64,000 bases of DNA from Flavobacteriales bacterium (GTDB lineage Bacteria; Bacteroidota; Bacteroidia; Flavobacteriales_E; Vicingaceae). This document shows positions 16,462 through 19,800 of this stretch, piece after piece. Below the pieces are notes generated by a model. That model saw only the letters and a list, made by a program, of their open reading frames with translations, searched no databases and was not told where the DNA came from. How positions within the stretch are numbered: the stretch's first letter is position 1; each line of letters starts with the position of its first letter. The stretch is from NCBI GenBank assembly GCA_020853105.1, contig JADYZM010000061.1:13410-77409 (forward strand). Direction: 5' to 3'. Made by a program: the position numbers and the translations under genes.

Positions 16462-17709
16462 CTATTTACTAAATTCCAAAATAGTTTTCTTTATAATTGA
16501 AACGCAATCCAGAAGATGCTCTTTATTCATCACTAAAGGTGGTGCAAAACGAATAATATTACCGTGTGTAGGTTTTGCCAGTAATCCGTTATCTCTCAGT
16601 TTCATACAAATATCCCAAGCCGTTGAACTATCTTCAGTATCATTAATTACAATAGCATTAAGAAGACCTTTTCCTCTAACCAATTGTACCAACGGTGATT
16701 GGTCAACCAAGGTCTGCATCTCTTTTCGAAACAATTCTCCTAAAACTTTTGCATTTCCTGCTAAATTTTCCTCTTTAACAACCTCTAAAGCAGCAATAGC
16801 TACCTTTGCAGCAATTGGGTTACCACCAAAAGTGGAACCATGCTGACCAGGTTTTATAACATTCATTATATTATCATTAGCTAATACAGCTGAAACGGGA
16901 TAAACACCTCCCGACAATGCTTTTCCTAAAATTAACACGTCCGGTACCACATTTTCATAATCGCAAGCTAACAGTTCACCTGTTCTTGCAATTCCTGTTT
17001 GAACTTCATCGGCTATAAATAGAACTCCGGCAGCTTTACACAATTCATACGCTTCTTCCAAATATCCATCGTTTGGCACATATACACCTGCTTCTCCTTG
17101 AATAGGCTCTACTAAAAATCCAACCACATTATCATCTCTAAGTGCCTTTTCCAATGCATCAATATTATTGTATGGAATTTTAATAAATCCGGGAGTAAAC
17201 GGTCCGAAATTAGTGTAAGAAGTTGGATCGCTGCTAAAAGAAACAATCGTAGTAGTTCTTCCGTGAAAATTACCTTCACAAACAATAATTTTTGCTTTGT
17301 TTTCTTCAACACCTTTTACTTCATAACCCCACTTTCTTGTAAGCTTAATTGCTGTTTCAACTGCTTCAGCACCAGTGTTCATGGGTAAAACTTTATCATA
17401 GCCGAAATATTCGGTAACATATTTTTCATAAACACCCAACACATTGTTATAAAAAGCTCTTGAAGTAAGAGTAAGCGTTTGTGCTTGTTCTATAAGTGCC
17501 TTAATTATTTTGGGATGACTGTGTCCTTGATTTACAGCAGAATACGCTGATAAAAAGTCATAATATTTTTTCCCTTCTACATCCCAAACATAAACACCTT
17601 CTCCTTTAGCCAATACCACGGGCAAAGGGTGATAGTTATGAGCCCCATACTGGTTTTCCAGATTAATCAATTGACTTGATGTAGATTTTGGTTTTGTCAT
17701 TGTTTCCAT
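16462..17709 (-). CDS. rocD: Ornithine--oxo-acid aminotransferase
   Basis: [40 protein letters not shown] lysine in [17 protein letters not shown]. Confidence 0.95.
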
Positions 17710-17801
17710 AGTTTATAGATTTAAAAAGGCTCATCGCGGAGAGCAAATATCCTTTCCTCATTGAAACAACATAAAATGTTATTAATGGAGAGAAATCATC
17801 C
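17710..17801 (-). promoter_or_regulatory. Candidate structured 5' leader of rocD
   Basis: Starts just downstream of a TAACTTTG -7 element. Contains a bulged hairpin with inner stem AATAACAT/ATGTTGTT, then a GCTC/GAGC hairpin followed by CTTTTT. Confidence 0.35.
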
Positions 17802-17805
17802 AAGA

Positions 17806-17813
17806 CAAAGTTA
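17806..17813 (-). promoter_or_regulatory. -7 promoter element for rocD
   Basis: TAACTTTG on the minus strand. Confidence 0.55.
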
Positions 17814-17825
17814 ACAAAAGAAACT

Positions 17826-17833
17826 TAATTTTG
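17826..17833 (+). promoter_or_regulatory. -7 promoter element for the DUF559-rlmD transcript
   Basis: TAATTTTG(C) on the plus strand, back-to-back with the rocD element and ~13 bp before repeat copy 1. Confidence 0.5.
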
Positions 17834-17846
17834 CTAAAACTTTTAA

Positions 17847-17916
17847 ACTCTCCCCTAACTCCTCTCTTGAAAGAGAGGGGAAAGAATAACAAAAGTTATT
17901 CAGGGGTGAGTTAAAA
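17847..17916 (+). repeat. Structured REP-like direct repeat, copy 1
   Basis: ACTCTCCCCTAACTCCTCTCTTGAAAGAGAGGGGAAAGAATAACAAAAGTTATTCAGGGGTGAGTTAAAA; an outer stem plus two hairpins. Confidence 0.9.
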
Positions 17917-17933
17917 TGCTGAATTCTTCCTAA

Positions 17934-18353
17934 ATGAAAGAAAAGAAAACCATTACCCAACTTGCAAGAGATTTAAGAAAAAATCAAACTGCTTCAGAAA
18001 ATTTATTATGGCAGAACTTAAGAAATAGAAAACTTAATGGCTTTAAATTTAACAGGCAATTTCCTATAGTTTATGGTCGTAATTTTGATGGGACTTCACT
18101 CTTTTTTATCGCTGATTTTTATTGCCATGAAAAGAAATTAATAATAGAACTTGATGGAAAAATTCATGAATTTCAGAAAGAATACGATAAAGAAAGAGAT
18201 ACTATATTAAACAAACTTGGTTTAAGCGTTATTAGAATTAAAAATGAAGAACTTGATAAATTATCAGAGGTTTTGGGAAAAATTAGAAACATACTCTCCC
18301 CTAACCCCTCTCTTGAAAGAGAGGGAAAGATTATCGTAGATAATCAAGGGTGA
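17934..18353 (+). CDS. DUF559 family (Vsr-like PD-(D/E)XK) endonuclease
   Basis: ARDLRKNQTASENLLWQNLRNRKLNGFKFNRQFPI, FIADFYCHEKKLIIELDGKIH, YDKERDTIL..LGLSVIRIKNEE. The last ~19 codons read through repeat copy 2. Confidence 0.9.
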   Translation: MKEKKTITQLARDLRKNQTASENLLWQNLRNRKLNGFKFNRQFPIVYGRNFDGTSLFFIADFYCHEKKLIIELDGKIHEFQKEYDKERDTILNKLGLSVIRIKNEELDKLSEVLGKIRNILSPNPSLEREGKIIVDNQG

Positions 18354-18360
18354 GTTAAAA
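18293..18360 (+). repeat. Structured REP-like direct repeat, copy 2
   Basis: ACTCTCCCCTAACCCCTCTCTTGAAAGAGAGGGAAAGATTATCGTAGATAATCAAGGGTGAGTTAAAA; 60/70 identical to copy 1 by manual alignment. Confidence 0.9.
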
Positions 18361-18372
18361 AAGTAAAAACTT

Positions 18373-19800
18373 ATGTCGATAAAAAGAGGAGAAACCATAG
18401 AAGTTGAAATTACAGATGTAGCTTTTGGAGGTAATGGAATTGCAAAATTGGAAACAGAACAAGGAAATTTAGTCGTTTTTGTTCCAAATACATTTACTGG
18501 TCAGCGAGTTAAAGCCCGAATTACCAATAAACGCAAGAAACACGCTGAATGCAAGTTGGTTGAAATTATAAATAAATCGCCGTTGGAACACAAAGTACCT
18601 TACCAACCTATTTCAGGTGCACCATATATTTCTCTCCCCATAGAAGTACAAAAATCGTTTAAAATAGATTCTTGTTTAAACATTTACAAACGTATTGGAA
18701 AGGTTGAAAAAATTGAACAGATTTTTGATGAATACATTGAATCTCCTGAGTTTTACCATTACCGCAACAAAATGGAATATTCATTTAGTGCAATTGGTTA
18801 CGATTTAGAAAAAAAGGAAGAATTTGACGGCTTTGCATTGGGTTTTAAAAAACGTGGAACTTGGTGGATAGTGGAGAACTTAGAAAAAGATTCAGGTATG
18901 TTTGACGCCGAATTTGAAGACAAATTAAAATTAATTAAAAATTTCTGTATTAAAACAGGGCTTCCTGCTTGGCATCCACCAAAAAAAGAAGGTTTTTTCC
19001 GTTTTTTAATTGTTAGAAAAAGCTACCAAAACAATCAATTACTAATTAAATTAGTAACCAGCGATACAAACATTGGTTTATTCAATTTCAATGCTTTTGC
19101 AGATTATATTGTTGAGTTGTTTGGCGACAGAGTTGCTGGTGTTTTGCATACCATAAACAACGATATTGGCGACAATGCTCAATCTCGTTTAGGAAACGAA
19201 ACTATACTTTATGGTAAATCAACCATTTCAGAAAATCTGTTGGGATTGTCGTTTGATGTAAGTATGCAAAGCTTTTTTCAAACCAATCCAAAATGTGCCG
19301 AATTGTTATACCAAAAAGCAATAGCTTATGCTATGGAAAACAATGACACTATTGCTGAAGGTGTTGTAATGGACTTGTTTTGCGGAACAGGAACCATTGG
19401 TCAGTTAATTGCTGCTAAAACTAACACACGCGTTATTGGAGTTGATATTGTTGAAGAAGCCATAGAAAATGCCAAAGAAAATGCAATTAAAAACAACATT
19501 AAAAACGTGGAGTTTTTTGCTGCAGATGTCAATAAATTTTTATTTGAATATCCGCAATACAAAAACCAAATTGGCACCATCATTTTAGATCCGCCTCGTG
19601 CAGGAATTGCTCGTAAAGCATTGCTAAAAGTAATTGAATTAAATGCTAAACAAATTGTTTACGTAAGCTGTAATCCATCAACACAGGCTCGCGACATGGA
19701 AGATTTGTTTGCAGCAGGATATCAATTAAAAAAGTTAAGTTTAGTCGATCAGTTTCCTCATACAGCACACGTGGAAGCGGTTGCATTATTTGTAAAATAG
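18373..19800 (+). CDS. rlmD: 23S rRNA (uracil-C5)-methyltransferase RlmD/RumA with TRAM domain
   Basis: N-terminal TRAM, YRNKMEYSF, SFFQTN, DLFCGTGTIG, LDPPRAG, YVSCNP (catalytic Cys) and DQFPHTAHVE. Confidence 0.92.
   Translation: MSIKRGETIEVEITDVAFGGNGIAKLETEQGNLVVFVPNTFTGQRVKARITNKRKKHAECKLVEIINKSPLEHKVPYQPISGAPYISLPIEVQKSFKIDSCLNIYKRIGKVEKIEQIFDEYIESPEFYHYRNKMEYSFSAIGYDLEKKEEFDGFALGFKKRGTWWIVENLEKDSGMFDAEFEDKLKLIKNFCIKTGLPAWHPPKKEGFFRFLIVRKSYQNNQLLIKLVTSDTNIGLFNFNAFADYIVELFGDRVAGVLHTINNDIGDNAQSRLGNETILYGKSTISENLLGLSFDVSMQSFFQTNPKCAELLYQKAIAYAMENNDTIAEGVVMDLFCGTGTIGQLIAAKTNTRVIGVDIVEEAIENAKENAIKNNIKNVEFFAADVNKFLFEYPQYKNQIGTIILDPPRAGIARKALLKVIELNAKQIVYVSCNPSTQARDMEDLFAAGYQLKKLSLVDQFPHTAHVEAVALFVK

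Follow-up and report, generated by a model that had tools for sequence, protein, structure and literature searches.

What does a lone nuclease gene do between two copies of a structured repeat, lodged in the gap between two host genes, and how did it come to be there? The question is raised by a 64,000-nucleotide stretch of the Flavobacteriales contig JADYZM010000061.1 (hereafter the window), part of a genome of wastewater or activated-sludge origin, in which an intact 139-aa DUF559 open reading frame (ORF) lies between two direct repeats of ~70 nt, the whole forming a compact repeat-gene-repeat cassette between a rocD-like and an rlmD-like gene (Table 1). A first-pass annotation of the window had described the gene and its repeats, and the covariance model built here places both repeats where they had been seen. 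We favor the reading that the cassette is a selfish unit of nuclease plus repeat, expressed from a host promoter, in which the nuclease would act on its own repeats; we give this a probability of roughly 0.55, with the recognition and cleavage of the repeats and the route of insertion as its proposed steps. What can be stated directly is that the nuclease gene lies among its own structured repeats, and that the enzyme family and the repeat class had not been connected in print: a full-text literature search found no published link between DUF559 and BoxC-type repeats.

The first line of evidence is that the cassette is present in some close relatives and absent from others. As the first-pass annotation had suggested, we compared the rocD-rlmD gap in the genome of the window (G000) with that of its congeners (G001, G003, G004, G005, and G009). 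The gap measures 663 bp in G000 (repeat-gene-repeat) and 864 bp in G003 (repeat-gene-repeat-repeat), and only 147-149 bp in G001, G004, and G009, where it holds no repeat and constitutes an empty site. The carrier G003 and the empty G001 are closer relatives of each other than of G000 (92.4% DNA identity in rlmD, 90.6% in rocD), and the empty sequence of G001 resembles the empty sites of G004 and G009. As an empty genome is thus the sister of a carrier, at least two events of gain, loss or allele replacement have taken place. A second locus is found in G005, in which a 74% homolog lies directly 5' of hutU; its downstream repeat is the same, whereas the upstream one is degenerate. The empty hutU site in G009 and G004 reads ...GAAATAAAAC followed by ATGG, and the G005 insert begins with the first bases of the repeat and ends in ...GAGTCAAAAAATAGAAGTAAC, again followed by ATGG. 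Since the empty sites at both loci are repeat-free, gene and repeats arrived together, and the cassette is gained or lost as a single block including both repeats. The intergenic spot 5' of hutU is an insertion hot spot: in G003:C21 and G008:C38 it carries another insert, consisting of a tandem AGAGGTTAGAAATT repeat and a small gene of ~115 aa.

These empty sites also bear on the idea that the nuclease gene homes into pre-existing solo or doublet repeats through cutting and repair, the repeats being its targets rather than its ends. Such an origin would agree with the fold match of the protein to a homing endonuclease (see below) and with the existence of doublets, namely the tandem pair that follows the G003 gene, two copies at a distance of 115 nt in G003:C1, and a contig of run X13 that reads repeat-16 nt-repeat. 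Both available empty sites, however, are without any repeat, and no target common to the two insertions is evident apart from A/T-rich sequence 5' of an ATG; homing into repeats is therefore highly improbable. In the X13 contig, which aligns to positions 17854/18362 of the window, 16 letters (TATAAATTACTCTCCT) link the end of one repeat to the start of a repeat. A related strain may have a repeat doublet there, or the junction may be circle-like; contigs cannot discriminate between the two. An allelic variant of the DUF559 3' end (10 differences over 143 nt) is present in the same run.

The structure of the repeats suggests which of their parts a protein could read. A 30-nt core pattern of the repeat matches the window twice (0 matches in 100 shuffles), and neither this pattern nor the covariance model finds a further copy in the window, in agreement with the earlier statement; the third copy in the genome is on another contig. 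Each copy folds on its own into the same three-way junction (z values against shuffles in Table 1). No credible Rfam family for the repeats emerged from a search of positions 17000-19000 with E values allowed to reach 10. Along the gene strand, the consensus of the copies is TCAACTC(T/A)CCCC - TAAC - CCCCTCTC-loop-GAGAGGGG (hairpin 1) - AAAG - hairpin 2 - CAGGGG(T/A)GAGTTGA, which gives the module order CTCTCCCC / CCCCTCTC-loop-GAGAGGGG / GGGGTGAG plus a second hairpin. The letters ACTC and GAGT, formerly read as a possible cassette-level terminal inverted repeat with a 3-bp TAA duplication, are the outer-stem ends of each individual repeat, and the flanking triplets vary among 32 copies; that reading is therefore withdrawn.

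Base pairs were counted in 28 repeat copies from five genomes, in an alignment fitted to the covariance model and hence favoring pairing. Hairpin 2 shows compensatory changes in 7/7 pairs and is 98% paired. Hairpin 1 and both outer blocks keep their sequence, and no compensatory change is seen in the outer stem. At their midpoint the outer blocks (5' over 3') carry T/T in 17 copies and A/A in 5, and the Watson-Crick combination A/T occurs in only 5. Retention of a mismatch at this position makes a plain stem unlikely, and the pattern would be accounted for by a triplex: CTCTCCCC mirrors the pyrimidine arm of hairpin 1, and GGGG(T/A)GAG mirrors its purine arm, with A or T opposite A-T pairs, as is allowed for purine-motif third strands under established triplex rules (PMC4666352). 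A variant of ~90 nt, in which a further hairpin separates the 5' block from hairpin 1, occurs in G003:C56 and G004:C70; it is nearly symmetric, takes a four-way form and matches the covariance model on both strands.

Read on the opposite strand, the repeat is hairpin-TTA-GGGGAGAG, arranged like the "type A" TM(ECO) motif of E. coli, for which BoxC and PIT element are older names (PMC4666352). The ITxF definition used for such elements specifies three consecutive triplex-compatible blocks with a stem of 6-15 nt, at most one mismatch and loops of 1-6 nt (PMC4666352). In the repeat studied here, the plus strand offers CTCTCCCC-TAA(C)-CCCCTCTC-TTGAAA-GAGAGGGG and the minus strand hairpin-TTA-GGGGAGAG, with blocks of 8 nt and loops of 3-6 nt. 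Like the class as a whole, the repeat is intergenic and multi-copy, with three copies in its own genome and 24 matches in G003, all intergenic. Judged from its sequence, the repeat is of the BoxC/PIT/TM type, a triplex-capable module that holds a structure-only second hairpin in one long loop. Hundreds of bacterial genomes contain BoxC/PIT/TM repeats, which adopt a triplex structure in vitro and are markers of unstable loci (PMC4666352); they have also been linked to locus rearrangement (Bergler, 1992; Hoyne, 2000; Holder et al., 2015, PMC4666352).

The protein belongs without doubt to DUF559 (PF04480), which it matches over residues 6-120 with 109.3 bits against a cut-off of 20.6 (E 1.1e-31). 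It is the only ORF of the cassette, in which, as noted before, there is no transposase or integrase (no Y1_Tnp match in a Pfam search). All that has been known of DUF559/YcjD is its prediction as a Vsr-related PD-(D/E)XK nuclease. The Caulobacter DUF559 protein VsrA is reported to cause an SOS response when the partner methylase is absent (PMC12907096), and DUF559 genes appear, as a table entry without comment, among those enriched in predicted inversion targets (PMC9881135). The only solved relative detected by sequence is 3HRL, an uncharacterized "endonuclease-like protein" (E 3.9e-15; PDB). An AlphaFold model based on 72 homologs has a mean confidence (pLDDT) of 83.9, with values below 50 for the last 15 residues (125-139), which are translated repeat. 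Foldseek aligns the model to 3HRL and to the catalytic domain of I-Bth0305I (3R3P), both with probability 1.0 (TM 0.70 for 3R3P, normalized to the target), and more weakly to the Vsr-like domains of PvuRts1I and AbaSI. Of the putative catalytic residues, D61, E72, D74, and G75 are invariant among the 72 homologs and H78 is found in at least 90%. Between congeners dN/dS is 0.11-0.16, which indicates purifying selection on a gene that is maintained rather than decaying.

To see how general the pairing of gene and repeat is, the first-pass annotation had proposed a survey of DUF559 loci across Bacteroidota. We collected 80 loci from 80 species of Bacteroidota, Balneolaeota, Ignavibacteriae, Cloacimonadota, Margulisbacteria, and others in a protein-guided scan with a four-sequence alignment, and searched within 200 nt of the gene ends with a hairpin motif that is independent of the covariance model. 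Pyrimidine-loop-purine hairpins of the CCCCTCTC type occur at the gene ends in 69/80 loci, in 49 of these on both sides; counted by side, 118/160 gene flanks carry one, against 11/120 other intergenic gaps at the same loci (Fisher p 2e-29). About three quarters of the hairpins have an adjoining mirror third-strand block, the hairpin arm is almost always C3-6TCTCT(T), and covariance-model matches cluster at the same two gene-end positions. Upstream and downstream arms agree within loci more often than in shuffles (6 vs 0.7); as the arm is highly conserved across all species, this concordance says little about cognate specificity. Across 41 relatives, repeat matches are found in 15/21 genomes with DUF559 and in 2/20 without (p 9e-5); with one genome per genus and the genus of the window excluded, the co-occurrence is 7/11 vs 1/17 (p 0.001). 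The copy numbers of DUF559 and repeat are correlated (Spearman 0.72). The pairing extends to E. coli, where YcjD is 38% identical to the cassette protein (E 3e-25), the end of ycjD falls within the hairpin CCCTCTCCC-TGAAAGA-GCGAGGGGG (protein tail ...RSPSP, compared with ...LSPNPSL... here) and a canonical BoxC copy lies ~180 nt 3' of the gene.

Two further arrangements count toward the selfish-unit reading. In a Prolixibacteraceae metagenome-assembled genome (L158 2555-4313), a repeat-DUF559-repeat unit of 777 bp stands twice in tandem, the two copies being 98% identical, which is what unequal recombination between flanking direct repeats should produce. In addition, in recG of G003, G004 (contig C62), G005, and G011 (contig C1), a DUF559 domain of ~140 aa is inserted in frame after the DEQH motif and before motif III, edged by the repeat-like peptides SPSNLPERE... 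and ...SLPFGEGRGGA; recG of G000 is without this insert, with the empty site at about G000:C14 15942-15955.

Copies of the repeat also occur without the gene, as the search for solo copies called for by the first-pass annotation revealed. One is in the genome of the window itself (G000:C25:59417-59490, no DUF559 nearby), and more are in the congeners, for which the covariance model gives 24 matches in G003, 9 in G004, 2 each in G005 and G009 and 1 in G001. We aligned 26 solo copies (G003 16, G004 7, and one each from G001, G009, and G000). Among the 24 with an identifiable upstream ORF, 22 are co-oriented with that ORF (p 4e-5), and many lie 17-30 nt 5' of the next start codon. At matching repeat-free sites in G000 the stop-to-ATG spacer is 9-20 nt, in place of which G003 has a block of 105-140 nt containing the repeat. 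The G003 site orthologous to the solo copy of G000 holds a different, degenerate structured element and is no clean empty site. Beside that solo copy, at G000:C25:59321-59382, is a dispersed sequence of ~62 nt, present in 41 copies in G002, several of them at contig ends, and in fewer copies in other congeners; this is an unrelated repeat or the end of an insertion sequence.

The solo copies could mean that the repeat is an autonomous or otherwise mobilized element of the BoxC/TM kind, comparable to repetitive extragenic palindromic (REP) sequences or miniature inverted-repeat transposable elements (MITEs), which spreads or recombines without DUF559, so that the gene is a trapped passenger or the repeats gather at gene ends for another reason. 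Besides the solo copy of G000, the matches in G004 and G001, which have no cognate gene, fit this view, as do the 26 solo copies examined, none of which has a DUF559 remnant beside it; moreover, in the published survey of TM sites, transposase or integrase remnants were never found nearby, nor was a mobility gene found near the E. coli copies (Holder et al., PMC4666352). An independent repeat would nevertheless not be expected at DUF559 genes in 69 of 80 species when only 9% of other intergenic gaps have the hairpin core, nor to be almost never carried by genomes that lack DUF559. The repeat-free empty sites at both cassette loci, by which gene and repeats came together, and a reading frame that merges into the repeat alike in Flavobacteriales and E. 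coli argue in the same direction, and we consider an autonomous repeat unlikely. On the selfish-unit reading, collapse of direct repeats would account for the sense-oriented solo copies that persist in gene-less genomes.

The position of the cassette relative to the host genes suggests how it could be expressed. TAnnTTTG is the -7 consensus of Bacteroidota. Of the two back-to-back boxes of this form that had been proposed 5' of the cassette (Table 1), both exist and are kept in the cassette-less G001, G004, and G009, although the motif by itself occurs at chance frequency. As the plus-strand box is kept in the empty sites, the cassette separates the start codon of rlmD from the probable promoter of that gene; it has the orientation of rlmD and no intrinsic terminator-like site was found in 17600-18500, so that read-through from the host promoter is possible. 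The same search ruled out that the repeats are classical terminators. Among the runs that hold this stretch, which are sludge and wastewater metagenomes, one cDNA-labeled run has contigs over 17718-18263 and 18339-18642, which are strandless and may reflect DNA carry-over; two true metatranscriptomes gave no contigs over the cassette. In the 58 free-standing cassettes of the survey, each neighbor is co-oriented with the cassette in 42 (p 9e-4).

On a further reading, DUF559 would be a repair or defense nuclease useful to the host, and its repeats would act in the transcript and not as mobile DNA ends, either by stabilizing or insulating it at its 5' and 3' ends or by serving as a binding site for autoregulation. 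The co-orientation of solo copies and cassettes, the possible read-through and cDNA contigs, the purifying selection on the protein and the covariation that keeps hairpin 2 are all in line with this, as is an excess of G-T (14) over A-C (6) wobbles when the hairpins are read in the sense strand. As a test of the strand of function, however, the difference in wobbles is not significant, and the orientation bias is equally expected if cassettes need host promoters and solo copies are their remnants. Presence and absence among close relatives and the different locus in a congener also count against a host function. No partner points to such a role: no C5 DNA cytosine methyltransferase gene adjoins the cassette, whose neighbors are rocD and an rRNA m5U methyltransferase gene (dcm was looked for only at this locus). 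Defense, phage and NCBIfam libraries returned nothing beyond "DUF559" for the protein, and among defense models (PADLOC) there is no full-length match, only weak, partial nuclease-domain matches (PDC-S69, 9.7e-6; DpdF, 2.5e-4). We therefore hold a host function with transcript-acting repeats to be quite unlikely.

For the selfish unit, a mechanism can be proposed. The nuclease would bind the CCCCTCTC/GAGAGGGG module of its own repeats and nick or cut it; the sequence-conserved triplex module is the likely recognition site, and the hairpin with free sequence may serve as a structural spacer. Repair of the break by recombination or template switching would then copy the cassette to new sites, which may be intergenic, just 5' of start codons, or in frame within genes such as recG. 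The same repair process could duplicate the cassette in tandem or collapse its direct repeats to solo copies, in the manner of solo long terminal repeats.

Several observations weigh against this account. To our knowledge, no nuclease activity, binding or cut site has been reported for the protein of the window or a close relative. At the rocD-rlmD site ~17 nt of empty-site sequence are replaced rather than split, and no convincing target-site duplication is seen at cassette or solo sites; the short matches that flank the cassettes (AAAACTT in G000, AAATTA in G003, and AAC at hutU in G005) are A/T-rich, were noticed post hoc and do not fit the empty-site sequence. The blocks inserted at solo sites, at 105-140 nt, include extra flanking sequence, again with no clear target duplication. 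G004 has 9 repeat matches, 7 of them strong solo copies, with only a distant DUF559 embedded in recG, and G001 has one repeat and no DUF559. Across the 80 species the orientation of the triplex module varies on both sides of the gene, though the copies are direct here. The cassettes of G000 and G003 have diverged as much as their flanks (~84% DNA identity, dS 0.95), by which the insertion is old. Finally, the identical protein occurs on 14 metagenome contigs, with rocD and/or rlmD adjoining in every contig long enough, and contigs of four wastewater runs include no cassette-less or joined form; with one locus in all sampled populations and no joined forms, there is no sign of current mobility in this species.

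The remaining features of the locus are listed in Table 1. The mini-ORF that abuts the DUF559 start codon is kept as MQNSS* in G003, and in G005 the corresponding codons belong to the DUF559 ORF. At the other end, the stop codon of DUF559 (TGA, 18351-18353) sits within AGGGTGAG, the last block of the downstream repeat. The A-rich tail has counterparts of 17 nt between the G005 cassette and the hutU ATG and of 22 nt between the G003 cassette and rlmD, and is probably part of the element. Orthologs of rlmD are present in 11 members of the genus. On the far side of the promoter boxes, the ~75-nt rocD leader is kept in 10/10 genus members examined; it consists of an invariant stem, AUGAUUUCUCUC / GAGGAAAGGAU, around a sequence-variable hairpin with compensatory changes, followed by a GCUC...GAGC hairpin. 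It has no Rfam match at E values up to 10 and is a possible cis-regulatory RNA for the catabolism of ornithine or arginine.

Table 1. Features of the rocD-rlmD interval, in positions of the window.
Feature	Position	Strand	Remarks
rocD-like class-III aminotransferase	16462..17709	-	Pfam Aminotran_3, E 2e-124; divergent host neighbor
rocD leader	17735-17805	-	~75 nt
TAnnTTTG box	17806-17813	-	
-7 box TAATTTTG	17826..17833	+	Bacteroidota-type; probably the host rlmD promoter, just 5' of cassette
DUF559 cassette	17844-18361	+	repeat-gene-repeat, ~520 bp; single ORF inside
Upstream repeat	17844..17917	+	covariance model 92.1 bits; fold z -6.2; used in family alignment and pair counts
Pyrimidine third-strand block CTCTCCCC, upstream	17848-17855	+	
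Hairpin 1, upstream	17859-17880	+	
Hairpin 2, upstream	17884-17901	+	
Purine block GGGGTGAG, upstream	17903-17910	+	
Mini-ORF MLNSS*	17916..17933	+	five codons; in frame with and abutting the DUF559 start codon
DUF559 (Vsr/EDxHD-fold) nuclease gene	17934..18353	+	139 aa; core residues 1-~122; tail 121-139 is translated downstream repeat
Downstream repeat	18290..18361	+	covariance model 81.8 bits; fold z -5.5
Block CTCTCCCC, downstream	18294-18301	+	
Hairpin 1, downstream	18306-18325	+	
Hairpin 2, downstream	18329-18345	+	
Block AGGGTGAG, downstream	18347-18354	+	
A-rich tail	18356..18372	+	17 nt; links cassette to the rlmD start codon
rlmD-like 23S rRNA (uracil-5-)-methyltransferase	18373..19800	+	Pfam TRAM and tRNA_U5-meth_tr; host gene 3' of cassette

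Beyond this locus, we tentatively suggest, as a possibility that we regard as open to considerable doubt, that DUF559 nucleases are the missing protein partner of BoxC/PIT/TM repeats, the two together forming an undescribed class of mobile element that crosses phyla. Such a class would have a Vsr-fold nuclease as its sole protein, triplex/hairpin ends recognized by that nuclease, and expression in sense orientation 5' of host genes or in frame inside them, with solo repeats as scars or as copies mobilized in trans. The repeats have been known since the 1990s, without known origin, partner protein or function (PMC4666352), and DUF559 is a large nuclease-fold family without assigned function; if the suggestion is true, a single purified protein of 14 kDa and a substrate of 70 nt would suffice to test both problems directly. 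Beside REP and RAYT there would then be another partnership of repeat and enzyme, independently evolved, and the many DUF559 domains embedded in housekeeping proteins such as RecG would be accounted for. The present locus is a favorable minimal case, with one gene, two defined repeats and clean empty sites in close relatives, and its covariation separates the parts of the repeat that are read as sequence from those read as structure.

Among known systems, the BoxC/PIT/TM elements are closest to the repeat. Like the repeat, they are built of three 8-nt blocks in a row that are mirror-symmetric about a pyrimidine-purine hairpin. In both, the purine third strand includes a single T (GGGGTGAG here, GGGTGAGGGG in E. 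coli), the second loop of the purine strand is of the TTA type, and the copies are intergenic and multiple. In contrast to these elements, the module here is part of a longer unit of ~70 nt with a second, covarying hairpin within its long loop, and it has third-strand blocks on both sides, by which either DNA strand could form a purine-type triplex. The copies number only 3 in this genome, and they bracket a nuclease gene, whereas no protein partner of BoxC/PIT/TM is given in the literature. With MITEs the repeat shares its short, non-coding, hairpin-forming nature, its intergenic dispersal and its complementary ends (TCAACTC...GAGTTGA); unlike them, it has no established target-site duplication and there is no DDE transposase with matching ends.

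The enzyme belongs to the same fold superfamily as the Vsr very-short-patch repair endonuclease, but there is no adjoining DNA cytosine methyltransferase here and the gene is an indel with repeat ends. I-Bth0305I and the other Vsr-like (EDxHD) homing endonucleases (PMC3239194) have the same catalytic fold and likewise show presence/absence polymorphism with clean empty sites. The DUF559 cassette differs from them in being free-standing, with its own start and stop, rather than in an intron or intein (Rfam finds no intron family at the cassette), in having structured terminal repeats, and in the occurrence of related copies at unrelated sites (the rlmD leader, the hutU leader and, in frame, recG).

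The arrangement as a whole resembles that of REP/REPIN-RAYT systems (REPtrons), in which a single nuclease-type gene is likewise flanked by a short structured repeat that is also dispersed without the gene, and no classical transposase or integrase is present. The first-pass annotation had proposed a REPtron-like or homing-like unit, and the empty sites, the second locus and the solo copies bear out a cassette that comes and goes. It is not, however, a REP/RAYT system: the enzyme has the PD-(D/E)XK Vsr fold in place of an HUH Y1 (IS200/IS605-like) transposase, the flanking copies are direct rather than inverted and few per genome, and the solo copies are mostly sense-oriented between co-directional genes.

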